Below, piece by piece: positions 6,744-54,892 of a stretch of 64,000 bases of DNA. The stretch lies in the IMG/VR virus record IMGVR_UViG_3300009610_000028, positions 19,415 to 83,414 of that record; one strand, given 5' to 3'. Position numbers and translations under genes: made by a program. Position 1 is the first letter of the stretch; every line of letters starts with the position of its first letter. The notes below the pieces were generated by a model. The model saw nothing but the letters and a program-made list of their open reading frames with translations, made no database searches and was not told the DNA's origin. The stretch comes from a virus.

Positions 6744-8420
6744 ATGAGTTCGATTTACGACGAGCTACGCGCGTCAATCGCGGACGGTCTCAAGAACCGT
6801 ACATTGACAAGCTGCTCACGATGGGCTGCTCGTCGCAGAATCATGGGCGGCGAATTCGCCGGACCATATTCGGATTGTAAGCATCCGTGGGTCAGAGAGA
6901 TGCACGACAGTTGGGCACCGTTCAACTGGGTAATGAAGGGCGCACAAGTCGGATGCACCGAAGTCGCCATCAACCGAGCGCTCTACACGATTGACAAGCT
7001 GCACCGGGACGTGATGTACGTCCTGCCCACCACGAAGAACGCCAGCAAGTTCAGCAAGGGTCGTTTTGGTACTGCTCTTGCTCTGAGTCCCTATCTCAAG
7101 GGTCTCTTCACTGACACGAACTCGGTGGACCTCAAGCAGGCCGGGGCCAACTGTCTCTACATCAGTGGCTCACGAGGCGACAGCAACCTCAAGTCGGTGC
7201 CTGTCTCCGAACTCGTTCTCGACGAGTTGGACGAAATGGACAAGTGGGCGATCAGTCTAGCGCTGACTCGTCTTCAAGGTCATACCGAGAAGCACGTCTT
7301 CGGTCTCTCGACTCCCACCATTCCTAATCGTGGCATCCACGAGCAGTTCAAGAATAGCACCCAAGAACATTTTGTGTTCCCGTGCCCAAGCTGCTCGCGG
7401 CAAATCCACCTAACGTGGCCAGACAACATTGAAATCCTCGGCGAAAGCCTGATCGACCCGAAAATCAAAGACTCCTATCTCAAGTGCCATCTCTGCAATG
7501 CTCGTCTTGAGCATCTCGACAAGCCTAACTTTCTAAAGCATGCGACATGGGTCTCCATGAATCCCAACGGGATCAAGGAGCACCGAGGCTTCCACGTCTC
7601 GCAGATGTACAGCTTCACGATGAGTCCTGCGGAACTCGTCTATTTCTACTTCAAAGGCTTCGGCAGCGAGTGGGACGCCAAACAGTTCCACAATTCGCAG
7701 CTAGGCGTGCCATTCATCAGTGACGGAGCACAAGTCACTGACGAGATGATCGACCGTTCTATTCGTAACCATACGAAGAACGATGACCGACCAGTGGTTG
7801 GCGGTGAGAAGATCATCACGATGGGCGTGGATCAAGGCGACTGGAGCTACTACGAAATCTGCGAGTGGACGATTGAGAGCTTCGGCCTCGATCTGAATGC
7901 AACGTCGCAATGCAAAGTGATTTGCGAAGGCAAGTTCTGGCGAGAAGACTTCGACCGTGAACTCAATCGACTAATGCGTGAGTGGCAAGTCCTCACGTGC
8001 GTCATCGACGCTGACCCCTTCGGCCTTGAAGCTCGACGATTCGCTCGTCGCTTCCCTGGCCACGTCTATCTCTGCCGCTATCGCAGCGGAGTGACGGCAC
8101 GGGAGATCGCGATCACCGATGACGAAGACGGCGCACCGATCATCACAGTGGATCGCTCCAACTGGATGAGTGCGGCTTTGGGACGGTTCAAAAACAACCC
8201 GTCTCGGATTTGGTTACCCGCTGATGTGTCGCATGAATACCGCGAGCACGTCAAGAACCTCGTCGGCACGTACAAGCAAGACGAGGAGTTCGGCAATCCG
8301 GTCTATGTCTATGAAGACATCGGACCAGATCACTTCGGACATGCCCGCTGCTATGCGGAGATCGCGTTGCCGCTGGTGGCAGTGCAAATGACCAACAAGG
8401 ATGTCAAGGCGTTCCTATGA
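6744..8420 (+). CDS. terL: Terminase large subunit (lambda GpA family)
   Basis: KGAQVGCTE Walker A, LVLDELD Walker B, STPT motif, CPSC/CHLC zinc pair, MGVDQG nuclease motif, C-terminal DHFGHA. Confidence 0.93.
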   Translation: MSSIYDELRASIADGLKNRTLTSCSRWAARRRIMGGEFAGPYSDCKHPWVREMHDSWAPFNWVMKGAQVGCTEVAINRALYTIDKLHRDVMYVLPTTKNASKFSKGRFGTALALSPYLKGLFTDTNSVDLKQAGANCLYISGSRGDSNLKSVPVSELVLDELDEMDKWAISLALTRLQGHTEKHVFGLSTPTIPNRGIHEQFKNSTQEHFVFPCPSCSRQIHLTWPDNIEILGESLIDPKIKDSYLKCHLCNARLEHLDKPNFLKHATWVSMNPNGIKEHRGFHVSQMYSFTMSPAELVYFYFKGFGSEWDAKQFHNSQLGVPFISDGAQVTDEMIDRSIRNHTKNDDRPVVGGEKIITMGVDQGDWSYYEICEWTIESFGLDLNATSQCKVICEGKFWREDFDRELNRLMREWQVLTCVIDADPFGLEARRFARRFPGHVYLCRYRSGVTAREIAITDDEDGAPIITVDRSNWMSAALGRFKNNPSRIWLPADVSHEYREHVKNLVGTYKQDEEFGNPVYVYEDIGPDHFGHARCYAEIALPLVAVQMTNKDVKAFL

Positions 8421-10198
8421 CTTTGTATCAAACGCGAATCATCGACAGCCGGCATCCCAACTTCCTGTCGAACGTAGGTGACTGGGAGAAGTGGCGACTG
8501 ACCTACCGGGGTGGGGAAGAGTTTCGCAACAAGTACCTCGAACAATTTACTAACCGCGAAGATCGACAGGACTTTGAAGCCCGCAAGCGAGTGACTCCTA
8601 TTCCGAGTTACGCGAAAGCGGCCATCAACGACATCCGTAACTCGATCTTCCAGCGGATGCACGACATCACACGTCGAGACGGCAGCAAAGCTTATCAACG
8701 AGCGATTGCTGGCTTGGATGACGGAGTAGATCGTCGTGGATCAACGATGAATTCGTTCCTCGGCATCAAATGCCTGACGGAACTTCTGGTGATGGGGCGA
8801 GTCGGCGTCTGCGTCGATTCCCCGGTAGTTGAAGGTGCTACGCTCGCCGACGCCAAGGGCGCTCGGCCGTATCTCTACAGCTATCAAGTTGAAGACATTC
8901 TCAACTACTCATGCACCAAGCCTGACGAGCCGAGTGAGTTCCAATCCGTGTTGCTTCGCGACACGTGCATGGACTACGACCAACGCACCATGCTGCCGCT
9001 TGGAACCTTCCAGCGGCTGCGGATGATGTGGATCGACAAAGAGACTGGCTTCGTCAATGTGCAGTTCTACAACGCAGCCGGCGATCCAATCGACAGCTAC
9101 GGGAACACATCAGGCCCGGTGCAACTCGAACTCACGAAGATTCCCTTCGTACTATTCGACGTTGGTGACTCGCTCATCAAGGATGTCTGTAACCACCAAG
9201 TTACGCTTCTGAATCTGATCTCCAGTGACGTGAACTTCGCGCTCAAGGCGAACTTTCCGTTCTACGTCGAGCAACGCGACATGCGTGCGGTCGGCAGCCA
9301 CTTGAAGGTCGCTGCTAACCCGGATGGCACCGCCACAACTGGTGGCCAAACATCCCACGACAACGAGATCAAGGTCGGTGCCACGCAAGGTCGGTTCTAC
9401 GACATCAAAGCGAACGCACCAGCCTTCATCAATCCGTCGCCCGACCCGCTCAAGGCGTCGATGCAGTTGCGAGCCGAAATCGCAACCGAGATTCGACGCT
9501 TGGTCAACCTTCGAGTTGAAGGCATGGCAGAACGAGCCAGCGCCGAGAGCAAGGCAATGGACAACCAAGGGCTGGAAGCTGGTCTCAGCTTCATCGGCCT
9601 GGTCCTGGAGAGTGGCGAACGCAAGATCGCCGAACATTGGGCCGCGTTTGAGGATCGAGTCGAAACCCGCCGCAAGGTGGCCACGATCAAGTATCCCGAC
9701 CGCTATAGCCTCAAGACCGATGCTGATCGCATCGACGAGGCCACTAAGCTCTCCAAGCTGATGTACACGGTGCCGGGCCAGACAGTGAAGAAAGAGATCG
9801 CCAAGATCATCAAAGATTCGCTGCTCGGTGGCAAGGTCAACGTGGAAACCATCTCGACAATCAATTCAGAGATCGACAATTCGGACTATACGACTAGCGA
9901 TCCTGAGACGATTGTTCTGGCCGTCGAGAACGGCCTATGCGGTGACCAAACCGCTTCTATGGCACTGGGCTTTGACGAGAACGAATACTTGCAAGCTCAG
10001 AAGGATCACGCCGCTAAAGCCAAGCGTGTTGCTGAGGCGCAAGCCAGCGTCAAGCCGGACCCAGGAGCACGGGGCGTCGATTCACTTTCGACCGATCCCA
10101 AGTCTGCTCCGAAAGAGAAGGCCGCCAGTCGGGATAAGTCCCTACAAAGTGACAATCAGAAGCGTGTTCGTGGCAACGGCCGCTTTCCCAAGGAGTAA
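8417..10198 (+). CDS. Portal protein
   Basis: 593 aa directly after terminase (ATGA overlap). HP...W...YRGG N-terminus, SAESK motif, disordered C-terminus. Confidence 0.85.
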   Translation: MTLYQTRIIDSRHPNFLSNVGDWEKWRLTYRGGEEFRNKYLEQFTNREDRQDFEARKRVTPIPSYAKAAINDIRNSIFQRMHDITRRDGSKAYQRAIAGLDDGVDRRGSTMNSFLGIKCLTELLVMGRVGVCVDSPVVEGATLADAKGARPYLYSYQVEDILNYSCTKPDEPSEFQSVLLRDTCMDYDQRTMLPLGTFQRLRMMWIDKETGFVNVQFYNAAGDPIDSYGNTSGPVQLELTKIPFVLFDVGDSLIKDVCNHQVTLLNLISSDVNFALKANFPFYVEQRDMRAVGSHLKVAANPDGTATTGGQTSHDNEIKVGATQGRFYDIKANAPAFINPSPDPLKASMQLRAEIATEIRRLVNLRVEGMAERASAESKAMDNQGLEAGLSFIGLVLESGERKIAEHWAAFEDRVETRRKVATIKYPDRYSLKTDADRIDEATKLSKLMYTVPGQTVKKEIAKIIKDSLLGGKVNVETISTINSEIDNSDYTTSDPETIVLAVENGLCGDQTASMALGFDENEYLQAQKDHAAKAKRVAEAQASVKPDPGARGVDSLSTDPKSAPKEKAASRDKSLQSDNQKRVRGNGRFPKE

Positions 10199-10201
10199 GC
10201 A

Positions 10202-10501
10202 ATGTCAGCAGTTCAAGTGGTGAAAGAATCGTTGCCAGGTTTCATGGCAGGTAATGGGACAGTCGGCGGAACGCCGGCTCAACTCACGACCATTGCGTTT
10301 CCAATCACCAAGCACGTCGTTGTCCAGGCTGCATCTGGCAATGGCAGTACGGTCAGCGTGGGGCCAGCCTCAGCGCAAGCCGCAAACGGATACATCCTGG
10401 CAGCGGGCGAGAGCACGCCGCCGATTTACGTGGACGATACGTCCAAAGTGTGGGTCGTCGGGGGTGCCGCCGACCAGGATTACAACTGGATCGCAAACTA
10501 A
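10202..10501 (+). CDS. Small beta-sandwich virion protein, paralogue of 11231..11548
   Basis: KESLPG, VVVQA..GN..TVSVG and DQDYNWI match KESVPG, GNTAPVWVG and DQDVAWI. Confidence 0.7.
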   Translation: MSAVQVVKESLPGFMAGNGTVGGTPAQLTTIAFPITKHVVVQAASGNGSTVSVGPASAQAANGYILAAGESTPPIYVDDTSKVWVVGGAADQDYNWIAN

Positions 10502-10513
10502 GGAATCAAATCA

Positions 10514-11218
10514 ATGGGTATTCTCGCCGACCTTCTTGCCGCCCCGCTCACGTACAGCAACACGCCTGGTGTTGGCCGACACGTGTATCGGAACCTGGAA
10601 GACATCCTTCGCACGTATGGTGACTTTGACTATCCGAGTGGTTTCAACACCGGGAACGAAGTTCAAGGTATCGCTGTTCACTCCGGCACAGTCAGCGGTG
10701 GCACGTTCACCTTGACTCCTCAAGTGACTGGTGCCGTTGCAACTGGCAACATCAACCACAACGCCAACGCTGCCACGATTCAGACCGCTATCGACACCGC
10801 AATGACTGGTGTCGCTGGTTACGTTGCCGGACATCTGGCAATCACTGGTGGACCTCTCACCACGACCCCGCTGGTTCTCACCTACAGCGGTGCCTCGGTC
10901 GATGCGACCAACTACGCCCTGGTTGTGGGTGACGGTGCTCTGCTCACTGGTGGTGGCACGCTCGGTGCGATCACGCAGACGACCGCTGGTCAATCTGCCC
11001 GCGCTGCTTGGGCCTTCCTCAAAGTGGCTGGCATCATCACCAGTGCTCCGCCGGATCAAGGCAGTTCTGGCACTCCAACTGTTGGCTCTGGCCGTGGGCA
11101 GTTCCCGTTCAAGCTCAACAACGACACCGTGATCGCTCTCATCGAAGAGGCGGCTTCCAAGGACGGTGGAATCGCGGCTGTGAAGACTTCCCTTCTGACC
11201 GCACTCCGCTTGCCGTAA
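10514..11218 (+). CDS. Virion protein with NEVQ-type domain
   Basis: NEVQ...SGGTFTLT...INHNANAATIQTA motif, also present in tail tube 2. Confidence 0.7.
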   Translation: MGILADLLAAPLTYSNTPGVGRHVYRNLEDILRTYGDFDYPSGFNTGNEVQGIAVHSGTVSGGTFTLTPQVTGAVATGNINHNANAATIQTAIDTAMTGVAGYVAGHLAITGGPLTTTPLVLTYSGASVDATNYALVVGDGALLTGGGTLGAITQTTAGQSARAAWAFLKVAGIITSAPPDQGSSGTPTVGSGRGQFPFKLNNDTVIALIEEAASKDGGIAAVKTSLLTALRLP

Positions 11219-11230
11219 GAGGTTTGACCC

Positions 11231-11548
11231 GTGGAGATCACAAAAGAATCAGTGCCTGGATTGCTACATGGGCACCAGGCTGCCGGCACTTCGCGGATTC
11301 GTCTCACTGATCTGGACATTCCAGTTCACAAAGGCGTGCTGATGCGATGCCCCGGATCGGAAGACGCGGGCGGTGGCAATACGGCACCCGTTTGGGTCGG
11401 TGGCAACGGCGTAACAGCCGATTCAGCCGCGACCGGCGGCATCCCAATCCTGCCAGGCGATTCGCTCTTCGTGCCGATTGAGCGGCCGATGTCGCTCTTC
11501 ATCATCTCGACCGATGCGGACCAAGACGTTGCGTGGATCGGACTATGA
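11231..11548 (+). CDS. Small beta-sandwich virion protein
   Basis: GAGGT RBS, GTG start, paralogous to 10202..10501. Confidence 0.7.
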   Translation: MEITKESVPGLLHGHQAAGTSRIRLTDLDIPVHKGVLMRCPGSEDAGGGNTAPVWVGGNGVTADSAATGGIPILPGDSLFVPIERPMSLFIISTDADQDVAWIGL

Positions 11549-12786
11549 GCATCATTTACATCAGCAGTAGGGGCGTGGCTGGCCCACAAGGCATTCAAGG
11601 CGACCCCGGTGCCGGTGTAATCAATTGGCTCGGCGTTTGGGACAGCGGCACTACTTACGAAATCAACGATGCTGTTTCCTACCAAGGAAGCAGCTACATC
11701 TGCCTCGTTCAGCATTCCAACCAAGTTCCTCCGAACCCGACCTATTGGGGCGTGCTCGCGGAAGTTGGTGACACAGGTGCAACCGGCCTGACCGGCGACA
11801 CTGGTCTTGGAATCACCTGGCTTGGCGACTGGGACAGCGGTGACCCATACGTCGTCAACGATGCAGTGGTCTTGGATGGCACGAGTTACATCTGCATCCA
11901 GGATCATACGAATCAACAACCGCCGAATGTCGCGTACTGGAACATCCTCGCACAGAAGGGTGGCACTGGAGCGACGGGCAACACGGGCGCAACCGGCGCT
12001 CGTGGCCTCACGTGGCGAAACGCTTGGAACAGCATCACGGCCTATGCAGTGGACGATGCCGTTCAATACAACGGCAGCGCATACATCTGTCTTCAAGCAC
12101 ACACGAATCAGTTTCCAACGAACCCTACCTATTGGAGTCTGCTGGCTTCAAAAGGTGACACTGGCACGACGGGCGACACCGGATTAACCGGAGCGGCCGG
12201 TGCTGACGGGCAGGGCTTCACCTGGCGTGGCTCATGGAGCGGCGCAATCACCTACGCTCCCTACGACGTAGTTGAGTTCGACGGGTCCAGCTACAACTGC
12301 ATTCTCGGCCACACGAATCAAACCCCACCGAATCCCACCTACTGGGAGACGATGGCCCAAGCTGGAGAAGATGGCGGCGGTGGCGGCAGTGGCGAAGGGC
12401 TGGTCACCGAGGCCGAGAACACGAACGCTGGTTCAATCTCAAAATGTCGCGTGGTCTATATCAGCGGCGTTGAAGAAGTTGATCTGGCGCGGGCTAACAA
12501 CACAACCACCGCCAAAGCTTTTGGCCTGGTTGCGGATAACTCCATCTCTGCGAGTGTCTCCGGCAACATTCAGATCAGTGGCATTCTCGAAGCCACAACC
12601 GGCCAGTGGGACACTGTGACCGGGCAAAGCGGTGGGCTGACATCAGGTGCCATCTATTACCTCAGCGCAGCCACCGCAGGCGCAATGACGACGACAGCGC
12701 CTGTCTCTGGATTCATCGTCGAACTCGGCAAGGCGCTGAGCACAACCAAATTTGACACCACGATAAGGCGGCCGATTCGGCTGTAA
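11545..12786 (+). CDS. Fibre protein: 4 CBM5/12-like modules with collagen-like linkers, plus C-terminal cement-like domain
   Basis: Four WxGxW...Y..NDAV...GSSYIC...H.NQ.PPN..YW repeats separated by Gly-X-Y triplets. Confidence 0.82.
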   Translation: MSIIYISSRGVAGPQGIQGDPGAGVINWLGVWDSGTTYEINDAVSYQGSSYICLVQHSNQVPPNPTYWGVLAEVGDTGATGLTGDTGLGITWLGDWDSGDPYVVNDAVVLDGTSYICIQDHTNQQPPNVAYWNILAQKGGTGATGNTGATGARGLTWRNAWNSITAYAVDDAVQYNGSAYICLQAHTNQFPTNPTYWSLLASKGDTGTTGDTGLTGAAGADGQGFTWRGSWSGAITYAPYDVVEFDGSSYNCILGHTNQTPPNPTYWETMAQAGEDGGGGGSGEGLVTEAENTNAGSISKCRVVYISGVEEVDLARANNTTTAKAFGLVADNSISASVSGNIQISGILEATTGQWDTVTGQSGGLTSGAIYYLSAATAGAMTTTAPVSGFIVELGKALSTTKFDTTIRRPIRL

Positions 12787-12790
12787 ATAA

Positions 12791-13273
12791 ATGGCTGCTC
12801 GCAAACCGCTAGTCATCAACGGCGGACAAATCGAACAACTCCAAGCCGGCGATACGCTTGATGCGTCAGTCACCGAAGTGGATGTGGTCAGCAAGACCAA
12901 TGACAACGCCAGTCCAATCGTCATTGGCAACGTTGTCTATAACAAGACAGACGGTGACGTTGACCTGGCTCGCGCAAACGCGCAGGGCACCGTTCAAGTT
13001 CTCGGCTTGGTCCGAGACGCAAGCATTGCCGCAGCCGCCGCCGGCAACATCCAGACAGACGGAATCCTGACAGCCACTACCGGCGAATGGGACGCTGTGA
13101 CTGGAGGGTCTGGTGGTCTCTCGCCCGGCGTGCCGTACTACGTCAGCGCCGCGACAGCGGGCTTGATTACAAGCACCGCACCTTCTAGCGCCGGTCAGTT
13201 TGTTGTGCGCATTGGACTGGCCAGTAGCGCTACCTCATTGGACATCTCAGTCGAACCCCCGATCAAGCTATGA
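12791..13273 (+). CDS. Head fibre/cement-like protein
   Basis: VDLARAN, GNIQ and TTGEWDAVTG..GGL shared with the C-terminus of 11545..12786. N-terminal RKPL peptide shared with 13270..15477. Confidence 0.75.
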   Translation: MAARKPLVINGGQIEQLQAGDTLDASVTEVDVVSKTNDNASPIVIGNVVYNKTDGDVDLARANAQGTVQVLGLVRDASIAAAAAGNIQTDGILTATTGEWDAVTGGSGGLSPGVPYYVSAATAGLITSTAPSSAGQFVVRIGLASSATSLDISVEPPIKL

Positions 13274-15477
13274 CCATCCGCAAACCGCTTACTATCACCA
13301 ACGGACAGATTGAAGCATTCCAATCCGGTGATCTAGTCAGCGGAGTTGCGAATGTTCTCACCAACACAACTCTCTATGTTGAGACTACGGGCAACGACAC
13401 GACCGGCGACGGTTCGATTGGCAATCCTTGGTTGACCATCGGGAAAGCACTCAGCTATCTCGCGGACAAATGGATCGAGAAAGACAACTTTGTCACGATC
13501 AACGTTGGTGACGGCAACTTTGCCATCTCTTCGTCGCTCACGATCAAGCATCCCTGCGGCGACCGGATTACGATCACTGGCACCAACACCCACGACAAAA
13601 CGTTGTCGAGCATTCAGAGTTCCTCCGGCTCGGCCGGTGCCTGGTCATACGTGCTCAATGTCAATACGGTGACCAACATTGCCGTGAATGACTACGTGCT
13701 CATTCGCGGGCCAGCCAATGGGACTCGACCAGAGTTTATCGCTGGTTGCCACGAAGTCACCAACGTCGATGCAGTCAATACTCGCATCACAATCGCGGTC
13801 AAGCATAAGCACACTTCTGTGGCGTCTGGCTCTGTCACAGGCACGGTCACGTGTGTGAAGACACGAGTGACAGTCACGGGCGTGGACGGATTGGTAGTCG
13901 ATCCCAATCACACGCTTGGCTTCATGGACAAGGTAGTGTTCGTGGGCGATGCCACGGCAACCAAGAGTGGAATTCTTAGTGGTCATGGTCTGGCCGCAGC
14001 CAATACCCATCTGTGGGTTGGCAACAATGTAGGCGTCGTGAACTTCCAGTATGGCGTACAAGTTGTCGGCGGCTCGTTCCGTGGCAACATTATCGCGTCT
14101 GGTTGTGTTTCTGATGGCGCACGTACATTCGCTGGTGCCAAAATCTATGCTTCGAGTGGAATCACGGCTACTGGCTGTGGTGCCTTTGGAGTCTTTGCCA
14201 CGCTGAATGGTTCGATCTATTGCCCGGCATCCCGGCTAACAGGTAACTCTGACAGCGGCGCTGGCGCTAGCGCTGGCGGGGTAGTTAGTTGTCCCTCGGC
14301 CCATCTGACGGGAAATACGCTCAACGGTGCTGTTGCTGAAAATCAAGGTTGCATTCTGTGCGACCTGGCTTTTATCAACAACAACTTGGACAATGGCATC
14401 ATAGCTCTGAATCAAAGCCATATCAGTTCGCCCTCAGCGACGATCCAAACGAACTTCAAAGGCGTGTACTGCGACAAAGGTTCTTACATCTATGTCGAAG
14501 GCAGTACCATCTCCAGCAACACGAGCGGAAGTTACAACATTTCCGCAGATACGCTTTCAGTCAATGGCTCGTACATTGACACGGGCGCAGCGGCAGGCTT
14601 CCCAATTCACGGTTCACCAGTGCCTGGTGGTCGTTTGACCCTGGAAAGCAACGTGGCGGTCTCAACCACCGATCAAGCTTCCGCTTCGACTATTTACTAC
14701 AAATCATTTCAACACGGCCATATCTGGCTCTACAACGGCTCGGAGTGGCTCCGGCGAACTCTGCCAGGCGGCCAAATCTCCGCAGCGTGCCCCACAGCTT
14801 CCGGCTCAAACAAGCCTTATGACGTTTTCATTTATGATGATAACGGCACACCAACCTTAGAGTTCCTGGCGTGGACGAATAACACGACACGCGCAACTGG
14901 CCTCCTTAATACTAGCTCTCCCTACTTGTGGACAAAGAGTGGTGACACCACGCGGCTCTACGTCGGGACGATCTATGTAACTACTAGCGGTAATACAAAC
15001 GACACACTGCGCAGTCGCCACGTGTGGAATATGTTTAACCGCGTAGTACGCGATATGTTTTGGATCGGCCCTCAAGCAAGTTACACATACAGTGCGAACA
15101 ATGTTGCACGCTATGTGAATGGTGGCACAGCACCATCGCTTTCAATAGTTGTTGGACTCTCTGAGGACATCTACCAAGCCGAAGCGCGAGTTACCGCCTC
15201 CAAATCTGTTGGAGCGAATGGTACAGCGATTGATATGGGCATCGCTCGCGATGCAACCAATACCACATTTGCGGTTGGTTGCCAGGCGGGAGTGATCCGT
15301 TCTACGACGGCAACTGATCTTGACCTCAGAACGCTGCAAACCACGTTCAGCGAAATCGCCCCTATTGGCTACCACGAATACAACTGGACTGAGCGTACTG
15401 GTACGAATTCCGTGACTCTCAACGTGGTTGGCACGAATGCCAATGAATGCGGCATGTTCGGTTGGTTCCCAATGTAG
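13270..15477 (+). CDS. Fibre/spike protein with parallel beta-helix (pectin-lyase-like) region
   Basis: LYVETTGNDTTGDGSIGNPWLTIGKAL start motif, G/N-rich coils, C-terminal GGRLTL domain. Confidence 0.75.
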   Translation: MTIRKPLTITNGQIEAFQSGDLVSGVANVLTNTTLYVETTGNDTTGDGSIGNPWLTIGKALSYLADKWIEKDNFVTINVGDGNFAISSSLTIKHPCGDRITITGTNTHDKTLSSIQSSSGSAGAWSYVLNVNTVTNIAVNDYVLIRGPANGTRPEFIAGCHEVTNVDAVNTRITIAVKHKHTSVASGSVTGTVTCVKTRVTVTGVDGLVVDPNHTLGFMDKVVFVGDATATKSGILSGHGLAAANTHLWVGNNVGVVNFQYGVQVVGGSFRGNIIASGCVSDGARTFAGAKIYASSGITATGCGAFGVFATLNGSIYCPASRLTGNSDSGAGASAGGVVSCPSAHLTGNTLNGAVAENQGCILCDLAFINNNLDNGIIALNQSHISSPSATIQTNFKGVYCDKGSYIYVEGSTISSNTSGSYNISADTLSVNGSYIDTGAAAGFPIHGSPVPGGRLTLESNVAVSTTDQASASTIYYKSFQHGHIWLYNGSEWLRRTLPGGQISAACPTASGSNKPYDVFIYDDNGTPTLEFLAWTNNTTRATGLLNTSSPYLWTKSGDTTRLYVGTIYVTTSGNTNDTLRSRHVWNMFNRVVRDMFWIGPQASYTYSANNVARYVNGGTAPSLSIVVGLSEDIYQAEARVTASKSVGANGTAIDMGIARDATNTTFAVGCQAGVIRSTTATDLDLRTLQTTFSEIAPIGYHEYNWTERTGTNSVTLNVVGTNANECGMFGWFPM

Positions 15478-15484
15478 GTGACAG

Positions 15485-15787
15485 ATGAGAGACATTCTCG
15501 CTTTGCATAATGCGTTACGAGACGCAGGACTCGACATCTCCGGTGTCAGTGATCCAGGGCCAAACGCCTACATCAACGGATGGAACACCACGCCCACAGA
15601 AGCTGAGCGTGCTCAAGCGGGTGCCATTCTAAAAGCATTCGATTGGACCGAGAAGCCAGCACTAACTCTCGCGACTATTGAAGCGCTTTCAAGTGATGAG
15701 AAATCGCGACTGATTGATTTGCTACTGACACAAGCGGCTGGCGTGCGACCGGACCTATTGGACATGGCGAAGAAACCAAAGGCGTAG
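15485..15787 (+). CDS. Hypothetical protein, possible fibre chaperone
   Basis: AGGTG RBS. Small ORF directly after the spike gene. Confidence 0.6.
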   Translation: MRDILALHNALRDAGLDISGVSDPGPNAYINGWNTTPTEAERAQAGAILKAFDWTEKPALTLATIEALSSDEKSRLIDLLLTQAAGVRPDLLDMAKKPKA

Positions 15788-15792
15788 GACAA

Positions 15793-17163
15793 ATGAGTAT
15801 CATTCATGTCAGTAGCCGTGGTGTTGCCGGTCCCCAAGGCATCCAAGGTGATCCAGGACCAGGCGTCATTAACTGGCTAGGCGAGTGGTCAGACGCCACC
15901 GCCTACGAAGAGAATGATGCGGTAACCTGGCTCGGCACGAGCTATATCTGCATCGTCGCTCACACCGATCAAGAGCCACCTGATCCCACCTACTGGGACG
16001 TGCTCGCTTCCAAAGGCGATGAGGGTGACGCGGGCGACCAAGGTGATGCCGGCCTCAGCATTGAGTGGCAAGGCAATTGGGATAGTGGTCAACCATACGT
16101 GGTGAATGATGCTATCACACTCGATGGCACCAGCTACATTTGCACGGTCAATCACACAAATCAATCGCCGCCCAACGCTGGCATTTGGAATGTGCTCGCC
16201 GCGAAAGGTAGTACAGGTCTCACTGGAAACACCGGCCTCACGGGTCCGATTGGAATCACCTGGCGAGGCGCGTGGAACTCAATCACGAGTTATGCCCTCA
16301 ATGACGCAGTGACTTCTGGTGGCAGTGACTACATCTGCATTCAAGCTCACAGCAATCATCAACCGCCCAACGTCATCTACTGGGACTTTGTAGCCTCGAA
16401 GGGCGACACTGGCACCACGGGTGACACTGGCGAGACAGGTGACACTGGTGCTACCGGCGATGGCTTCACATGGGAAGGTGAATGGAGCGGCGCAGAACCT
16501 TACCAAGTGCGTGATGTCGTTCAGTTCGATGGATCGAGCTACAACTGCATCCTCGGACACACCAATCAAACGCCACCGAATCCCACCTATTGGGAATTGA
16601 TGGCGTCGAAGGGTGACACTGGCACTTTTGACACAGACCCACTCACAGGCGCTGAGACCGGCACGGACGTAACCGCACAAACGGTGTCCACTCATCGGCG
16701 ACCTGAGACGATCCAATCGACGCACACATTCACTAACCAAAGCGTCACGATCACGGATCACACGACGGATGGCGGCCACGGCGGTGTGAAAATCTTCGAC
16801 TATCCCGAAGGCCATTTCGTGGTCGTTGGTGCTGTCGGCAATCTCACGATTGCTCGCGTCGGCACGAACCTGACAGCAACTGCTGCTCTGGTGTTCTCAC
16901 TCGGTACGACGGTCGCTGGTATCGACAACGATACGCTCACCGGAACCGAAGCTGACATCATTCCGTCAACAGCCGCCACGCTGAGTGGTGGAACAGTCAC
17001 GGTCAACTTTCAGAAGTCAGCCTTGCAATTCATCGACGGCACCGCCGGAGCGGCCGACGCCTACTTCAACGTGGTGTCTCCCGATGCTGGCATTTCTGGC
17101 AATGATGCTGTGCTCGTCAATGGCACTGTCATCCTCACCTTGATTCGCTTGGGTGACAACTAA
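15793..17163 (+). CDS. Second CBM5/12-like/collagen fibre protein with a different C-terminal domain
   Basis: First ~275 aa are colinear with 11545..12786 (MSII..SSRGVAGPQGIQGDPG). Confidence 0.82.
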   Translation: MSIIHVSSRGVAGPQGIQGDPGPGVINWLGEWSDATAYEENDAVTWLGTSYICIVAHTDQEPPDPTYWDVLASKGDEGDAGDQGDAGLSIEWQGNWDSGQPYVVNDAITLDGTSYICTVNHTNQSPPNAGIWNVLAAKGSTGLTGNTGLTGPIGITWRGAWNSITSYALNDAVTSGGSDYICIQAHSNHQPPNVIYWDFVASKGDTGTTGDTGETGDTGATGDGFTWEGEWSGAEPYQVRDVVQFDGSSYNCILGHTNQTPPNPTYWELMASKGDTGTFDTDPLTGAETGTDVTAQTVSTHRRPETIQSTHTFTNQSVTITDHTTDGGHGGVKIFDYPEGHFVVVGAVGNLTIARVGTNLTATAALVFSLGTTVAGIDNDTLTGTEADIIPSTAATLSGGTVTVNFQKSALQFIDGTAGAADAYFNVVSPDAGISGNDAVLVNGTVILTLIRLGDN

Positions 17164-17720
17164 TGGCCATCAACTTCGACTACTACGGCTCGCTCAGCGA
17201 AGCCAATGAATACTTTGACATGCGTCTCCACGAGAGCGCATGGTATGGGGCGACTCTCACGACTCGTCCCAAGGCACTGTGGGCCGCGACCAGAATCATC
17301 GACACCTTGAACTACAAAGGGTTCAAGAGCACTGTCTATGACTTGCTGGTTGCAAACAGCCTCACAGACTTGCCACGCGATCTCAGTGACACGAGCACTC
17401 CAACATTGGACGAAGTTCTGGCTGCTGAGGCCGCGCAGGTGCTGGAGTTTCCGCGAGGCTTGGATTCAACAGTGCCAGAGGCGATTCGCATCGCCCAGTA
17501 TGAGATCGCTCACACGCTCCTCGATGGCAAAGACCCAGAGTTGGAGCTTGAGAACCTTGGCATTATCAGTCAAGGCTATGCGTCAGTTCGCACAACCTTT
17601 AGCAGAACGCACGTGCCCGTTGAACATATCGTCAACGGCGTGCCTAGCTCTACGGCCTGGCGACTTCTAGTCCCGTTTCTTCGGGATGACGACGCGATTC
17701 GCGTTAGCCGGGTGTCGTAA
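17163..17720 (+). CDS. Head-tail adaptor (DnaT-like annotated family)
   Basis: YGSLSEANEYF, AL..AT..ID, LEFPR and VPEAIRIAQYEIA family pattern. Confidence 0.75.
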   Translation: MAINFDYYGSLSEANEYFDMRLHESAWYGATLTTRPKALWAATRIIDTLNYKGFKSTVYDLLVANSLTDLPRDLSDTSTPTLDEVLAAEAAQVLEFPRGLDSTVPEAIRIAQYEIAHTLLDGKDPELELENLGIISQGYASVRTTFSRTHVPVEHIVNGVPSSTAWRLLVPFLRDDDAIRVSRVS

Positions 17721-17786: not shown

Positions 17787-17816
17787 CCAAATTCGGGGTG
17801 CAAGGAAATGTTGGTC

Positions 17817-18674
17817 ATGTTCGTGAATGATTGGTACAAGCTGTGCGCGCTCGTTGCCTGCTATGACGGCGAAAACGAGGAGATTCCTGATCCGCCTGTC
17901 GCTCCCAAAGAAGAGGAGATGAAGGCACCGGAAGGATTCACTGCCGAGCAGCAAAAGAAATTCAATGATGCCGTCGCGGCCGAGCGCCGCAAGCAAGAGA
18001 CGAAGTGGCGAAGTCAGCTAGAGAAGGCTGAGGCCACTTACAAAGAGATGCTCGCGAAGACGGAAGGTCTCAGCGCCAAAGAGCGTGCGACCATCCAAGA
18101 GAATCTCGATACGGTCTCTGGACAACTCCGCAGCAAAGAGCATCAAGCTCAACTGGAGAAGAAGGAGTTGGAAGCTTCCTACCAAGGGAAGCTCACAGAA
18201 GCTCAACGTCGGGCCGAGATCGCTGAACAGCGTTATCGCGATTCGACCATCATGCGTGCGCTACAAGACGCCGCAGTTGAGCACGAGGCGTATAGCGCCT
18301 CACAGGTCGTCACGCTTCTCCGTGAGAAGACCAAGCTCGTCGAGACGCTCGACGAGAAGACCAACAAACCCAACGGACAGTTCAAGGTCGTCGTCGAGTT
18401 TCCTGACAAAGACAACACGACTGGCCAAGAGGTAATGACCACCAAGACGCCGGCAGAGGCAGTGAAGCGGATGACAGAGGTTGCTGAGTTCCAAAACCTC
18501 TTCCGCAAGAACGTCGTGTCTGGTGTTGGTGGCAACTCGGCTATCGGTGGCCTTACACCGGGTTCAAACGGGCGTATTGATGCGGCGAAGCTAACGCCGG
18601 AGCAATACCAAAAGGTGCGAGCAGAGAACCCTGAACTGCTCGGTCTGCGGCCTACTACTAAGCGCCGCCGTTAA
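17817..18674 (+). CDS. Capsid scaffolding protein
   Basis: Charged coiled coil with FTAEQ motif, immediately upstream of the capsid gene. AAGGA lies 10 nt before ATG 17817. Confidence 0.85.
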   Translation: MFVNDWYKLCALVACYDGENEEIPDPPVAPKEEEMKAPEGFTAEQQKKFNDAVAAERRKQETKWRSQLEKAEATYKEMLAKTEGLSAKERATIQENLDTVSGQLRSKEHQAQLEKKELEASYQGKLTEAQRRAEIAEQRYRDSTIMRALQDAAVEHEAYSASQVVTLLREKTKLVETLDEKTNKPNGQFKVVVEFPDKDNTTGQEVMTTKTPAEAVKRMTEVAEFQNLFRKNVVSGVGGNSAIGGLTPGSNGRIDAAKLTPEQYQKVRAENPELLGLRPTTKRRR

Positions 18675-18729
18675 AGCGATCAGGGGTCGAATTTCCCGAA
18701 ACAAAGAAACGTCCCTTTTGGAGACAAAC

Positions 18730-20148
18730 ATGAACCTGTGGTATCTCTCTGTGGCCGCTGTGGCGTGCTACGCAAATGACAATGATGCTTTCGTGCCCGA
18801 ATTGTGGGCGAACGAGGGGTTGGCCATCCTCGAAGAGAATATGGTCGCCGCGAATCTCGTTCACCGCGATTTCGAGCCGGAGATTCGCAACTTCGGCGAT
18901 GTGGTCAACACCCGCCGGCCGGGCACCTTCGGCATTCGCCGGAAGGTTGACGGAGACACACTGAGCCAGCAAGACGCGAACGCGACGAACGTCCGTGTGC
19001 CTCTGGATCAGTGGTTCTACAACTCGTTCACGATCAAGGATGGCGAGGCTTCGCTGAGCTTCCAAGACCTCGTGGACATCTATCTGCTCCCCGGCATGCA
19101 GACCATTGCCCGCTCGGTTGACCGCGCGGTGCTCGGTCGCATCCATGCCTTCTTCAACACTCCGACCAAGCGAGCCGGCAAGCTCGGTGGCTTGGATTCC
19201 ACGACCGCCAAGGATTACACCTTGGAGGCTCGCCAGATTCTCAACGAGAACCTGGCCCCTCTCGACGGACGCCGGAGCCTTGTGCTCTCGCCCGCGAGCG
19301 AGACCGGAATGCTCAAGAACGAACTCTTCATCCGCGCCAACGAGCGTGGTGATGGTGGGTCGGCTCTTGAGAATGCGACCCTCGGTCGTATCCTCGGCTT
19401 CAACACGTTCCTTGACCAGAACGTGAACAACATCTCGACTGGTGCCGAGACTATCGCTGGCACGATCACCAACGCCCTCGCGGCTGGTGGATCGGGCAGC
19501 CAAGCTTGCACCGTCACGGCGTATGAGGTCAATGTTGGCGAGTTCGCGACGGTGGCTGGCAACATGCAGCCCACCTACGTGACCGCCCGCACGGCTTCGA
19601 CCAACACCACTGCCGTCACCTTCAATGAGGCCAACAAGTACGCCACGCTCGCTTCGGCGGTCCTGACTGTGTACAAGGCTTGCGATGTCAACGGCGCTTA
19701 CGCCGCTGGCTACAGCAAGGGCATCATCCTGGATGGCTGGAACACCGATCAGCCCCCGCAGGCTGGTCAGTTGGTTGCGTTCAACACCGGCAGCAACCGC
19801 CGGACCTACACCGTCATCAACAGCGAGCTTACCGCCGCTGGCGAGCAGACTGTGTACCTGGATCGGCCGCTCGAAGTCGCCCTGGCGAACAACGACCTGG
19901 CCTTCCCCGGTCCCTACGGTAGCTTCAACTGGGCGCTGCACCGCGAGGCCATTGCCCTCGTGAGCCGTCCGTTGGCCATGCCGAACAACCGCATGGGCGT
20001 GATGAGCCAAGTTGGTGTCCACAACGACATCAGCATGCGCGTCAGCATGCAGTACGACATCAGCGCCGGTGGCACCATCGTCAATCTCGACCTGCTCTGC
20101 GGTGTCGCGGTTCTCGATAGCCGTCTGTGCGTGCCGCTGCTTGGTTAA
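18730..20148 (+). CDS. Major capsid protein (HK97 fold, P22-coat-like) with tandem insertion domains
   Basis: VPELWA, LVHRDFE, GDVVN..RP, LGRILGF, HREAIALVSRPL and DLLCGV motifs. GGAG RBS, strong codon bias, terminator downstream. Confidence 0.92.
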   Translation: MNLWYLSVAAVACYANDNDAFVPELWANEGLAILEENMVAANLVHRDFEPEIRNFGDVVNTRRPGTFGIRRKVDGDTLSQQDANATNVRVPLDQWFYNSFTIKDGEASLSFQDLVDIYLLPGMQTIARSVDRAVLGRIHAFFNTPTKRAGKLGGLDSTTAKDYTLEARQILNENLAPLDGRRSLVLSPASETGMLKNELFIRANERGDGGSALENATLGRILGFNTFLDQNVNNISTGAETIAGTITNALAAGGSGSQACTVTAYEVNVGEFATVAGNMQPTYVTARTASTNTTAVTFNEANKYATLASAVLTVYKACDVNGAYAAGYSKGIILDGWNTDQPPQAGQLVAFNTGSNRRTYTVINSELTAAGEQTVYLDRPLEVALANNDLAFPGPYGSFNWALHREAIALVSRPLAMPNNRMGVMSQVGVHNDISMRVSMQYDISAGGTIVNLDLLCGVAVLDSRLCVPLLG

Positions 20149-21531: not shown

Positions 21532-22260
21532 ATGGCTCGTATTGAATTGCGAGACGCCGTTATCAAGATCAAAGACGGTCTTGCTGGAACGGCGCTCATC
21601 AACGAGAGCATGGCGATGTCGGGCGATACTGACCTGACCATCGACACTGTTTCTCTCAACACCACGGATACCGATCTGGTTCCCGTTGGTGCGCGTTTCA
21701 CTGTGCAAGGCGAGACCGCGAGCACGACTGTTCACACTGTTACCCAACGCACGGGTAACCCGGTGACGAACATTGTCTTCACGCCCGCTCTCACCGCCGG
21801 CACCTATAGCAACAACAACGTCCTCACGTTCACCAGCCAAGAAGTCGAGATCAAAGTCGGCGATGGCGATGTGACCTACACGGAATCGAACGAGTACAAC
21901 TACGATCTTGATCGTGGTGATCTTGACACCGTGCGCGAGGGCAACCAAGTCCCGATGGATGTGTCGTTCGACATTGTGTACGAACACATCACCACGGGCA
22001 CGAATGAGACCATCTCTCCAATGGATGCTCTCAAGCGGAAGGGTGGGGCCACTGAATGGGTCTCCAGTGCGAGCGATCTCTGCGAGCCTTACGCCGTGGA
22101 TGTCGAAGTCACGCACGCTTCGCCTTGCGGCACTTCGCAAGACGAGACCACGACCTTCCCCGACTTCCGTAGCGAGTCGCGCGAGATCAGTTTCGCCGAT
22201 TCGGTCATCTCTGTCTCTGGCCGCTGCAATGCCGTCGAACCCATCGTGGCCCGCAGCTAA
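21532..22260 (+). CDS. Tail tube protein 1
   Basis: AGGAG RBS, acidic T-rich, upstream of chaperone and tape measure, paralogue adjacent. Confidence 0.8.
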   Translation: MARIELRDAVIKIKDGLAGTALINESMAMSGDTDLTIDTVSLNTTDTDLVPVGARFTVQGETASTTVHTVTQRTGNPVTNIVFTPALTAGTYSNNNVLTFTSQEVEIKVGDGDVTYTESNEYNYDLDRGDLDTVREGNQVPMDVSFDIVYEHITTGTNETISPMDALKRKGGATEWVSSASDLCEPYAVDVEVTHASPCGTSQDETTTFPDFRSESREISFADSVISVSGRCNAVEPIVARS

Positions 22261-22270
22261 GGAGATATAA

Positions 22271-23293
22271 ATGGCACGGATTGAGCTTCGAGACGCCATC
22301 GTGCGTTTCAAGGATGGTTTTGGAGGGAGCGGCCTAGTCGATGACACGGCAATTGCTGGCGGCAACGACAGCTTGTCCATCGACACGCTCACCGGCCTAA
22401 CCAACAGTGTGACGCTGGTCCCTGTCGGGGCACGCTTCACAATCAACACGGTTGCGGACACGGTGTTCACCGTGACCGAATCAACTGCGAACGAGATTCA
22501 GCGGCTGACGATTGACGCTACTAGCGGCAACTTCACCCTAGACTTCGACGGCGAAGAGACCGCCAACATCTTGTTCAACGCGAATGCTGCCGCGATCCAA
22601 GCAGCGCTGGTTGCTCTGTCCAACATTGGACCGAGCGACGTGGTTGTCACCCTTGTGAGTGGCAGCATCTTCGACATCGAGTTCACTGGAGTCTATGAAG
22701 GACTCGACGTGGCCTTGATTATTGCAACGGACGTGGACCTTTCCGGCGGTGGCGACACCGTGGGCGTGGTTCTCCGCGAGCCGGCTGCCAGCACGAACTA
22801 CATCGAGTTCACCCCTGTCTTGGACGGCGGCGATCTGCCGGCGAACAACGACACGATCACGTTCCTGCCTCAGCAGATCGAAATCAAGGTGGGCGATGGC
22901 GATGTGACCTACACGGAATCAAACGAGTACAACTACGATCTTGATCGTGGCGATCTCGATACCGTCCGTGAAGGCAACCAAGTGCCGATGGATGTCGCGC
23001 TCGACATTGTGTACGAGCACATCACGACTGGCACCAGTGAAACCGTTTCGCCGATGGACGCCTTGAAGAAGAAGGGCGGAGCGTCGGGATGGTTTAGCTC
23101 AGCTTCGGATCAATGCGAACCCTACGCCATTGATGTTGAGATTGAGCATGCGTCTCCCTGCGGAACTTCGCAGGACGAGATTACGGTGTTCCCAGACTTC
23201 CGCAGTGAGTCCCGTGAAGTCAGCTTCTCGGATGCGGTGATCTCTGTCTCTGGTCGCTGCAATGCGGTCGAGCCGATTGTGACTCGCGTCTAA
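22271..23293 (+). CDS. Tail tube protein 2 (with ~95-aa NEIQ domain insertion)
   Basis: Same MARIELRDA start and near-identical EIKVGDGDVTYTESNEYNYDLDRGDLDTVREGNQVPMDV core. Confidence 0.8.
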   Translation: MARIELRDAIVRFKDGFGGSGLVDDTAIAGGNDSLSIDTLTGLTNSVTLVPVGARFTINTVADTVFTVTESTANEIQRLTIDATSGNFTLDFDGEETANILFNANAAAIQAALVALSNIGPSDVVVTLVSGSIFDIEFTGVYEGLDVALIIATDVDLSGGGDTVGVVLREPAASTNYIEFTPVLDGGDLPANNDTITFLPQQIEIKVGDGDVTYTESNEYNYDLDRGDLDTVREGNQVPMDVALDIVYEHITTGTSETVSPMDALKKKGGASGWFSSASDQCEPYAIDVEIEHASPCGTSQDEITVFPDFRSESREVSFSDAVISVSGRCNAVEPIVTRV

Positions 23294-34206: not shown

Positions 34207-34217
34207 GGGAGCGAAGG

Positions 34218-34787
34218 ATGAAGCTGGCGAAGGAGAGCATTGATCGTTTCTTTGACTACGACATTCACGTCGAGAGTCGAACGATCTGGCTAGGTGATGA
34301 CGAAGATGGCATCACGGAGAAAACATCGGAGCGTCTCGTGAAGGCGCTCCACATGCTGGCCAACGCCGCGCCCGACAGGGAGATCACTATCTTCCTGAAT
34401 AGTCTGGGCGGCTGTTGGTTCAATGGCATGGCAATCTACGATGCGATTCGGGCCTGCCCATGCCCGATCACTTGCTACATCATCGGCGCTGCGATGTCGA
34501 TGGGTAGCATCATTGCACAGGCATGCGACCAGCGTCTGATCTATCCGAACGCAACCATGATGGTCCACGACGGGTACGAGACACGGGTCGATGACATCCC
34601 ACGGACGTTTCAGAACTGGGCGGACTACTCGAAGCACACCCAGAAGAAGATGTACGAAATCTATGCTGAGCGGTCTGGACGGCCAGTGACCTTCTGGCGG
34701 AAGAAGTGTTCGGCCGATCTCATCCTGACAGCGGCCGAGGCCAGGGAGCTTGGCCTGGTCGATGCGATCTTCGGAGAGCCAGCATGA
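34218..34787 (+). CDS. clpP: ClpP-type serine protease
   Basis: IFLNSLGG, GMAIYD, AMSMGS (Ser), MMVHD (His), DLILTAAEARELGLVD (Asp). Confidence 0.92.
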   Translation: MKLAKESIDRFFDYDIHVESRTIWLGDDEDGITEKTSERLVKALHMLANAAPDREITIFLNSLGGCWFNGMAIYDAIRACPCPITCYIIGAAMSMGSIIAQACDQRLIYPNATMMVHDGYETRVDDIPRTFQNWADYSKHTQKKMYEIYAERSGRPVTFWRKKCSADLILTAAEARELGLVDAIFGEPA

Positions 34788-50010: not shown

Positions 50011-50406
50011 ATGTACCCAGATCACGAGAAGGACTTTCTCATCCCAGTCAAGCTCAAGAGCGGGTTAGTTGTTTACCTGCTTGAAGAGGATGACGCCGAC
50101 GCTGTGAAGGCCGCTGATCGAGCCGGCCGACCGCTTCCGCCACCGAAGAATCACCGGCTGCTGCCGTTCGGTCAGGGAGTCAAAGAGATCACTAGCGAGC
50201 GCTTCGAGTGCCACTACCGAGATGAGAGTCTCGGCACCTTTCGCACGCTCTATGAAGCTCTTTCGCAATGGGACTACGCAGAACGCTACGAGCGCTTCTG
50301 CATCATTCGTGATCGCGAGCAAGCGGAGATTGACTCCCGCTATTACTCCGAACTGACATTCGACAAGGACGGCTACAAGGTGTTCAAACCTCGGCCGAAA
50401 GAATGA
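50011..50406 (+). CDS. Hypothetical protein
   Basis: ORF with ATGA overlap into the polymerase. Confidence 0.7.
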   Translation: MYPDHEKDFLIPVKLKSGLVVYLLEEDDADAVKAADRAGRPLPPPKNHRLLPFGQGVKEITSERFECHYRDESLGTFRTLYEALSQWDYAERYERFCIIRDREQAEIDSRYYSELTFDKDGYKVFKPRPKE

Positions 50407-54062: not shown

Positions 54063-54522
54063 GTGGTACATCCAAAAGGACTTGATGGAGTTTCTCAAGG
54101 ATCGTAATTGGCTCGTCGAGCGGATGATTGGCAACGCCTACCAGTACGGCATCCCTGATCTGTGGGTGCATCACAAGAAGTTCGGCGGGCGGTGGATCGA
54201 CGTGAAGAATCCGACGCGCTACAGCTTCACCAAAGAGCAGCGACACAAGTGGCCGCTCTGGGAGAAGTTTGGCTGCGGAATCTGGATTCTCACTGCTGCA
54301 ACGCAGGACGAATACGACAAGCTGTTCGCCCCTCCTAACTGGCGCGATTATTGGAAGCCGTCTTACGACAAGACGCACGACATCGACGCCCTTCTCGACG
54401 AGCTTGAACATGAAGCTGCAAACGAAACCCTCGCGCTGGCAATGCGCGATCACAGCCTTCGCGATGGCATTGAACCTGCCGGTCGCGGAGCTAATAGAAC
54501 AAGTCGGGCACGACGGAAGTGA
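54028..54522 (+). CDS. VRR-NUC-like PD-(D/E)XK nuclease (resolvase candidate)
   Basis: E..IQ, GIPDL, WIDVK, FTKEQ. Confidence 0.8.
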   Translation: MRKIRQAKHGPEWYIQKDLMEFLKDRNWLVERMIGNAYQYGIPDLWVHHKKFGGRWIDVKNPTRYSFTKEQRHKWPLWEKFGCGIWILTAATQDEYDKLFAPPNWRDYWKPSYDKTHDIDALLDELEHEAANETLALAMRDHSLRDGIEPAGRGANRTSRARRK

Positions 54523-54892
54523 GATCATCTTCGAGAACCAGACCGAACCGGGATGCCGGGCTGGTCACAGTCTCTACGAGTTGATCTACCAATCCCTCAA
54601 GCTCGGCTATGCGGTAACTCCGATGCCGTTGATCCTGGCACACGCCAGCATTGACCATCAACAGTACCGCGAGGTTTGGGATTTGGAAGACGGTTGGGAC
54701 ACCTTTCATCTATTCGGTGTCATGCGGCGGGGCGTTGTGGAATGTCACGGCCCACGCTGGAAGCACATGGTCGCGTTCGACCAAGGCACTGTCTTCGATC
54801 CCGATGGCGACACCTTCCCATTTCTCCGCGAGGAGTTTGAGAAGCGCCAACTCTATCCAGTATTTCTTTGGCGAGTGGACAAGATCGCATGA
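54410..54892 (+). CDS. Cytoplasmic C39-like cysteine peptidase
   Basis: Q......QCAITAFAM (Cys), KHMVAF (His), VFDP (Asp). No signal peptide. Confidence 0.65.
   Translation: MKLQTKPSRWQCAITAFAMALNLPVAELIEQVGHDGSEIIFENQTEPGCRAGHSLYELIYQSLKLGYAVTPMPLILAHASIDHQQYREVWDLEDGWDTFHLFGVMRRGVVECHGPRWKHMVAFDQGTVFDPDGDTFPFLREEFEKRQLYPVFLWRVDKIA

Follow-up and report, generated by a model that had tools for sequence, protein, structure and literature searches.

Known systems and the present locus

In Staphylococcus phage 80alpha the capsid and scaffold proteins carry one and the same short N-terminal leader, 13-14 residues in length. It imitates the extension at the N-terminus of the host's ribosomal protein L27, and the host cysteine protease Prp (MEROPS C108) cuts it. 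We analyzed a window of 64,000 nucleotides (bases 19415-83414 of the 83.4-kb IMG/VR virus record IMGVR_UViG_3300009610_000028, whose completeness is estimated at 77%), in which the genes for the head scaffolding protein and the major capsid protein likewise begin with a common leader, of 16 and 14 residues respectively, and in which a conserved gene for a small cysteine peptidase is a candidate for its removal. The likeness to 80alpha (PMC5744158) extends to the length of the leader, to its presence on both proteins, to the junction (an aromatic residue followed by a small one, F/A there and [YF]/[AD] here, the slash marking the cut) and to the lack of a classical prohead protease in either phage. 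The differences concern sequence and enzyme. The leader described here is unrelated in sequence to that of 80alpha; a search of 61 genomes from the likely host phylum found Prp in none, and the single L27 sequence read has the canonical form. The candidate enzyme is encoded by the phage and has a papain/C39 fold rather than the fold of Prp.

A phage cysteine endopeptidase that trims the N-terminus of a major head protein is known from Streptococcus phage Cp-1, where the first 48 residues are reported to be removed (PMC12445089, PMC9405229). Unlike the protein considered here, that enzyme is assigned to the Prp clan (clan CR, with a His-Cys dyad; PMC12445089) and not to the papain fold, and in the descriptions of Cp-1 that were compared, a leader common to head protein and scaffold is not mentioned. 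Classical prohead proteases (HK97 S78, lambda C S49, ClpP-like S14, T4 gp21 S77/S80) also mature head proteins by proteolysis, but they are of serine or assemblin-like type, their genes belong to the head module, and, packaged in the procapsid, they remove long delta domains or digest the scaffold.

The fold of the candidate enzyme is closest to the C39 leader-peptidase domains of LahT150, ComA and PCAT1. In LahT150 (PMC6363468), Cys27 lies on helix alpha1, and His101 and Asp117 on strands beta4 and beta5. The phage protein also has its Cys at the start of helix 1 and its His and Asp on consecutive strands, a likeness of layout rather than a residue-by-residue superposition, and its presumed substrates share the hydrophobic P4 residue of C39 leaders (positions are counted from the predicted cut, P1 before it and P1' after it). 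In contrast to the C39 domains, it has no detectable membership of the family by sequence and stands alone instead of being fused to an ATP-binding cassette (ABC) exporter. Its presumed site is Cys-[YF]/ and not Gly-Gly/ (or Gly-Ala/Ser), and its presumed substrates are large structural proteins, whereas theirs are exported peptides.

A leader common to scaffold and capsid protein

The scaffold open reading frame (ORF) begins with the ATG at 17817, an alternative ATG being present at 17808, and the N-terminus of its product reads MFVNDWYKLCALVACY/DGENEE. The ATG at 18730, with GGAG 6 nt before it, opens the capsid ORF, whose product starts MNLWYLSVAAVACY/ANDNDAFVPELWA. When the two leaders are aligned without gaps, 8 of 13 residues (N, W, Y, A, V, A, C and Y in NxWYxxxAxVACY) are identical, and the sequences are exactly those on which an earlier note, made from the same DNA, had based its proposal of a common 13-residue leader. 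The pattern WY.{5}VACY has exactly two matches in the six frames of the 64 kb, and these are the scaffold and capsid N-termini.

At the DNA level the leaders agree in only 18/39 bases, and six of the seven common residues that allow a choice of codon are encoded by different codons in the two genes. This indicates that the likeness is maintained at the protein level and does not stem from a DNA repeat or a recent gene conversion. Because the protein sequence is conserved with different codons, the true starts do not lie downstream of the motif, which the earlier note had named as a possibility. A matrix trained only on capsid leaders assigns 16.2 bits to the scaffold leader of the window, the 99.99th percentile of the background being 3.0 bits (1.06 million six-frame positions from six genomes). 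In these six phage genomes every match of at least 15 bits is a capsid or scaffold N-terminus. No third leader-bearing protein rose above noise in the same scan; matches of 8-11 bits fell inside ORFs or in short frames. A regular-expression match in the portal protein (W..WR..Y[DE]GG) lies about 30 residues into that protein and was taken as a coincidence.

The leader is a conserved N-terminal extension

The capsid protein is a member of the P22_CoatProtein family (PF11651; 90.9 bits against a curated cut-off of 24, E 1e-25). A search for its relatives yielded 1346 homologues at E<=1e-10 among 8000 candidates scored, and the best 120 were examined for the leader. It was present in 120/120, so that the concern voiced in the earlier note, that the motif might be lacking in homologues, is not borne out. 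Automatic anchoring by pattern succeeded for 115 sequences, on which the positions were tallied; the other five end in CY by eye. The resulting consensus is MNxLYLSxAxVAC[YF]/[AD]NDNDA, and the leader is 14 residues long in 97 of the anchored capsids. P1 is always aromatic (F in 63, Y in 52) and P2 is C in 111. The remaining leader positions are less strict: P4 is V, L or I in 98, P6 is A in 99, P9 is L in 82, P10 is Y in 110 and P11 is L in 94, while P3 is V or T in 32 and P5 is Q in 29. After the predicted cut, P1' is A in 83 and D in 24, and is one of A, D, G or E in 114.

In the related viral loci the capsid gene is preceded by one for a scaffold with a similar leader, followed by an acidic or Gly/Ala-rich linker, and the leader was found on both proteins in 53 loci. 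Homologous scaffold leaders end in C[YF]/[DE]G. Distant relatives have A, V or M instead of Cys at P2 in both genes, and the aromatic P1 is never altered. The scaffold itself, which is kept in 5/5 complete relatives, consists of the leader, an acidic linker, a coiled-coil body and a basic C-terminal tail.

The capsid proteins of cultured relatives begin at roughly the point at which the leader ends. The profile alignment of phrog_283 starts at capsid residue 15. Distant homologues in cultured phages (identity <=32%) align from query residue 12 or later in 60/60 records, and three of these capsid proteins, from Vibrio phage D478, Streptomyces phage Keanu and Clostridium phage phiCP34O, are leaderless, with a few residues ahead of FIPxxW. 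Sequence comparison confirms the leader as a genuine N-terminal extension on two unrelated head proteins, and it is a real, ancient module. In an AlphaFold2 (AF2) model of the capsid protein, residues 1-36 have a predicted local distance difference test (pLDDT) value below 50, that of the leader being about 30, and residues 1-23 are without secondary structure. Such a disordered N-terminus fits a removable tag as well as a flexible one and does not decide between them.

In one subclade of relatives (L045, L046, L047, L048, L049, L056, L058 and L059) an insert of approximately 0.9-1 kb interrupts the capsid gene and contains an ORF of the Endonuclease VII type (PF02945, E 4e-5). The break follows ...LEENMV in most of them and ANDNDA in L045 and L047. 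The Rfam model Intron_gpI aligns over its full length to L046 2039-2941 (35.3 bits, E 4.8e-7, under the gathering score of 50) and bridges the two capsid pieces. We regard the insert as a probable group I intron that harbours a homing endonuclease, the leader being on exon 1.

Concerted evolution of the two leaders

Both leaders were readable in 53 loci, which gave 46 distinct scaffold/capsid pairs. The comparison was confined to P10-P3, the near-invariant P1 and P2 being excluded. Over these positions scaffold and capsid leaders share 3.65 identities within a phage and 1.75 between phages, a difference reached in 0/10,000 permutations. Particular types, such as LNTPxLAC[YF], VIANAxxxAF and LFSAxExVAY, occur in both genes of the same phage. 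The scaffold and capsid leaders evolve in concert. Since segments drifting independently would lack such an excess, the two must follow a common constraint that shifts from phage to phage.

A conserved candidate leader peptidase

All ORFs of the record were compared with five complete relatives in order to find conserved peptidases. The only conserved candidate was the 160-residue product of 54410-54892, present in 5/5 of them. No peptidase family of Pfam was matched by 19 of the core proteins, in a scan that did not take in the polymerase-sized conserved protein encoded at 50403-52931. Alignment of 14 peptidase sequences showed C12, H34, H119 and D130 to be invariant in all 14, with C12-H119-D130 forming the triad. 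In the AF2 model (pLDDT 88.5) the Cys is at the start of helix 12-20, and the His and Asp are on strands 118-124 and 127-130.

The best matches in two independent structure searches were the C39 leader-peptidase domains of LahT150 (6mpz, Z 12.8, root-mean-square deviation 2.5 over 120 residues), PCAT1 (8vp3, Z 12.8) and ComA (5xe8, Z 12.4), the deviations of the C39 matches being 2.5-2.6 over 120-123 residues. Foldseek E values began at 6.5e-5, those of PCAT1 and ComA ranging from 6.5e-5 to 1e-3. The window protein had no Pfam match at E<=0.01, and a search against PDB sequences gave nothing meaningful.

An exhaustive profile search collected 1740 peptidase representatives, nearly all of them stand-alone proteins of about 150-170 residues; a word-based search found only 9. 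Among the 150 best representatives nearly all were 105-196 amino acids long, and the three longer ones were fusions to helix-turn-helix (HTH) or NYN domains. The NYN fusion is P0211. The nearest Atlas clusters to the family are 87-95% viral. Besides the five complete relatives, the peptidase was present in 3/5 further, incomplete ones; of all the relatives selected by their capsid gene, those at least 80% complete have it in 7/7. Conversely, nine records were reached through the peptidase: six contained the capsid gene, all six with co-varying leaders on both genes, and the three without it were 19-57% complete. The peptidase was found in 0/50,697 cultured phage records and in 0/201 genomes of the likely host phylum. 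It is a conserved, phage-specific protein, peculiar to this phage group, with a leader-peptidase fold and triad.

Public gene calls (P0121, 142 aa; an Atlas record) begin the peptidase at Met19 and so omit the invariant catalytic Cys12. The sequence from Met1 onward is conserved in the 14 sequences, which supports a start at the ATG at 54410 (window positions 54410-54466). The following gene (54868-55557, + strand) encodes a 229-residue protein with a C-terminal HTH that weakly resembles sigma-70 region 4, and the two genes remain paired in G003 and G005.

Other proteases and the host

The earlier note had proposed three proteases as candidates, and of these only the C39-like peptidase at 54410 has held up, with its presence in all five complete relatives and C39 as its best fold. 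The ClpP-like protein matches families of head maturation proteases. Its gene lies after the tail genes and outside the head module, and PF00574 was absent from 12/12 related records, five of them 100% complete, all of which keep the leaders; among the absentees is G002, the closest large relative, with 77% capsid identity. The gene is therefore accessory in this phage, and ClpP was rejected as the maturation protease. The permuted papain (38-772) occurs in 2/5 complete relatives and was set aside as an envelope or lysis enzyme, as was a papain-like lipoprotein (769-1368) with a lipobox signal peptide, found in 1/5. That the head module contains no prohead protease, as the same note had stated, holds for the ORFs from terminase to capsid. 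The families S78 (PF04586) and S49 (PF01343) were each found in 0/5 complete relatives, the search covering these two and not the T4 gp21 family.

The host phylum is likely to be Planctomycetota. The main clue is a degraded prophage remnant beside an integrase in a Planctomycetaceae metagenome-assembled genome (MAG), the sole capsid relative in a scan of 185,579 species genomes; a second is the occurrence of one capsid and one peptidase homologue on a single Planctomycetota MAG contig. The remnant (L060 5531-6684, from an uncultured Planctomycetaceae MAG) comprises a scaffold that is truncated and pieces of the capsid that have internal deletions; an integrase-like ORF adjoins it.

Prp (PF04327) was absent from all 61 genomes of the likely host phylum, controls from Bacillus, Thermotoga and Lactococcus being positive. 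In the MAG with the prophage remnant the best E value for Prp was 0.4, and the phage record lacks it as well. The L27 protein of that MAG, the one host genome read, starts MAHKKGQGSS, at the conserved core and with no extension; according to a review, every species with a long L27 also encodes Prp (PMC9405229). The mechanism of 80alpha, host Prp acting on a mimic of long L27, was accordingly rejected for this phage, in agreement with the view taken in the earlier note that the two systems differ.

Proposed mechanism and alternative explanations

We propose the following. Scaffold and coat are each synthesised with a short leader at the N-terminus (consensus M-N-x-L-Y-L-S-x-A-x-V-A-C-[YF]), which the stand-alone C39-fold cysteine peptidase of the phage would read in the cytoplasm and cut after the invariant aromatic residue. 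The products would be a coat protein starting ANDNDAF, near the start of the coats of leaderless relatives, and a scaffold starting at its acidic linker. If recognition resembles that of C39 enzymes, the leader residues P4 (V/L/I), P9 (L), P10 (Y) and P11 (L) would act as hydrophobic knobs bound in a groove away from the active site, and the S1 and S2 pockets would be widened for [YF] and Cys instead of Gly-Gly. The likely purpose, judged from 80alpha, is that folding and assembly of the two procapsid-building proteins become coupled or licensed in this way. We consider the chances that the phage peptidase removes the leader to be about even. The fuller proposal is more tentative and falls a little short of that: it would be a self-contained tag-and-peptidase system for head assembly in a large uncultured group of Planctomycetota phages, in which a C39-fold enzyme recruited from leader-peptide processing has been retooled from Gly-Gly to Cys-[Tyr/Phe], co-evolves with the 14-residue leader of scaffold and coat, and licenses procapsid assembly by removing it.

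A number of observations weigh against this proposal. Cleavage, its site, the pairing of enzyme with substrate and the purpose are all matters that we infer, and the phage group is uncultured. Known C39 enzymes cut after Gly-Gly and the present leader ends in Cys-[YF]; 0/14 members of the peptidase family match the Pfam C39 model (PF03412) even at E<=10. The structural matches to the pseudomurein endoisopeptidase PeiR (Z 12.6) and to staphopains (Z of about 10.7) are almost equal to the C39 matches, so that the fold points to the papain clan and favors C39 narrowly. The peptidase gene is situated in the replication region between the genes for DNA polymerase and ligase, outside the head module. 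Its 3' end overlaps the HTH/sigma-70-region-4-like gene, and two database proteins (P0143 and P0206; 383-384 aa) fuse the peptidase to an HTH/sigma-like domain; overlap and fusions could indicate a regulatory role. Co-occurrence of two core genes does not amount to a functional link, and no clade with the leader and without the peptidase, or the reverse, was found among the relatives examined. In 80alpha the scaffold leader is essential for assembly and its cleavage is dispensable (PMC5744158), which means that a shared leader need not act through its removal. A complex prediction for the peptidase with capsid residues 1-40 gave a score of 0.01 against a mark of 0.32; no controls were run, and the result was counted neither way.

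Several of these points would suit a leader that is retained as a docking or assembly peptide. It could be a ligand for some partner of both proteins, for instance the portal or a chaperone; it could pair with itself and thereby link the scaffold N-terminus to the N-arm of the coat; or it could serve regulation. The peptidase would in that case do something else, such as processing a regulator. Concerted evolution of the leaders is explained equally well by a shared binding partner or by leader-leader pairing as by a shared protease, and both the dispensable cleavage in 80alpha (PMC5744158) and the overlap and fusions of the peptidase with sigma-like/HTH sequences are in keeping with it. We nevertheless regard retention as unlikely, though as an alternative to be taken seriously: the boundary of the leader is sharp ([YF] at P1 in 115/115 and A, D, G or E at P1' in 114/115 anchored capsids), the coat sequence that follows begins near the start of leaderless relatives, a low-complexity acidic or Gly/Ala linker directly follows the leader of the scaffold, and the sole conserved peptidase has a dedicated leader-peptidase fold. 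Cleavage of the leader by a planctomycete protease other than Prp, whose normal substrate the leader would mimic, has a precedent in the cutting of both 80alpha proteins by host Prp at the motif shared with L27 (PMC5744158), and the variation of leaders between phages could then follow differences between hosts. Such a host enzyme is improbable in view of the absence of Prp from the phylum genomes with positive controls and of an extension from the L27 of the Planctomycetaceae MAG; besides, the explanation names neither an enzyme nor a substrate, and the phage carries a suitable conserved peptidase of its own.

Two further explanations carry very little weight. The phage ClpP-like protein has head maturation protease families as its best PHROG matches and a strong CLP_protease match, but trimming of the leaders by it is hard to credit when all 12 relatives without PF00574, including G002, retain their leaders and the gene follows the tail genes instead of lying in the head module. 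Lowest of all we place a lipoprotein or secretion signal, or an artefact of chance or of wrong start codons; we give these practically no credence. The xVAC ending is lipobox-like, and L-V-A-C of the scaffold does fit a lipobox. However, there is no positively charged n-region, and only about 8 (8-10) partly polar residues precede the Cys. Position -1 (leader P3) is V or T in 32/115 capsids and position -3 (P5) is Q in 29, distant relatives have A, V or M at the Cys position and never change the aromatic residue after it, and capsid assembly is cytoplasmic. A lipoprotein signal of the form [LVI][ASTVI][GAS]C with a basic n-region and an h-region was thus rejected on sequence. Chance is excluded by the uniqueness of the motif in six frames, by the matrix scan and by the permutation test.

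Relation to published work

A single leader on coat and scaffold is already known from 80alpha, and a phage cysteine protease that trims a head protein from the published description of Cp-1 (Prp clan; PMC12445089). The new elements here would be the sequence of the leader, the host phylum, a process independent of the host, and the use of an enzyme of C39 fold at an aromatic P1. At the level of abstracts, with subscription journals and supplements outside the search, we found neither a link of a C39 or papain-like peptidase to the processing of phage capsid or scaffold proteins nor a description of the virion proteins of this phage group.

A leader shared by capsid and scaffold has so far been tied to one mechanism, that of staphylococcal phages borrowing Prp, and its purpose there is unclear. 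The same design is now seen in an unrelated phage group with more than 1300 capsid clusters and about 1700 peptidase representatives. If the proposed cleavage takes place, one removable leader on both builders of the procapsid would be a recurrent solution, and the function of the leader could be studied in a second system, one that is genetically self-contained. The route would be a third independent one to capsid maturation, beside packaged prohead proteases and hijacked host Prp, and the C39 fold would acquire a new specificity together with a new substrate class. The group would then also represent a natural library of orthogonal leader/protease pairs, and co-varying pairs could serve as cleavage tags.

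Gene layout and additional observations

The positions of the head genes, the leaders and the proteases discussed above are collected in Table 1.

Table 1. Head genes, leaders and putative proteases in the window; positions are those of the 64,000-nucleotide window.
Feature	Position	Strand	Basis or remarks
Terminase large subunit	6744-8420		GpA type
Portal	8417-10198		phrog_145
Ad1-like adaptor	17163-17720		
Head scaffolding protein, 285 aa	17817-18674	+	phrog_206 head scaffolding protein, E 7e-11
Scaffold leader, 16 residues, MFVNDWYKLCALVACY (19 from ATG 17808)	17817-17864	+	Predicted cut after Y16, before DGENEE
Major capsid protein, 472 aa, P22-coat type	18730-20148	+	phrog_283 major head protein, E 2e-54
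Capsid leader, 14 residues, MNLWYLSVAAVACY	18730-18771	+	Predicted cut after Y14, before ANDNDAF
ClpP-like protein	34170-34787	+	phrog_94 head maturation protease, E 1e-34; Pfam CLP_protease PF00574, E 6e-32
Stand-alone cytoplasmic papain-fold cysteine peptidase, 160 aa, candidate leader peptidase	54410-54892	+	Triad, AF2 fold, conservation

Fibre-like and collagen-repeat genes (10202-17163, + strand) occupy an unusual position between the portal gene and the block of adaptor, scaffold and capsid genes; one fibre-like example is 11533-12786, which matches phrog_5073 tail fiber (E 1e-60). Downstream of the capsid gene, the products of two adjacent genes (21532-22260 and 22271-23293, + strand) both start with MARIELRDA and have a long C-terminal block in common (IEIKVGDGDVTYTESNEYNYDLDRGDLDTVREGNQVPMD...). 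The second of them contains an insert of about 100 residues with weak matches to major-tail-protein PHROGs, and the two look like tandem paralogues of a tail tube-like protein.

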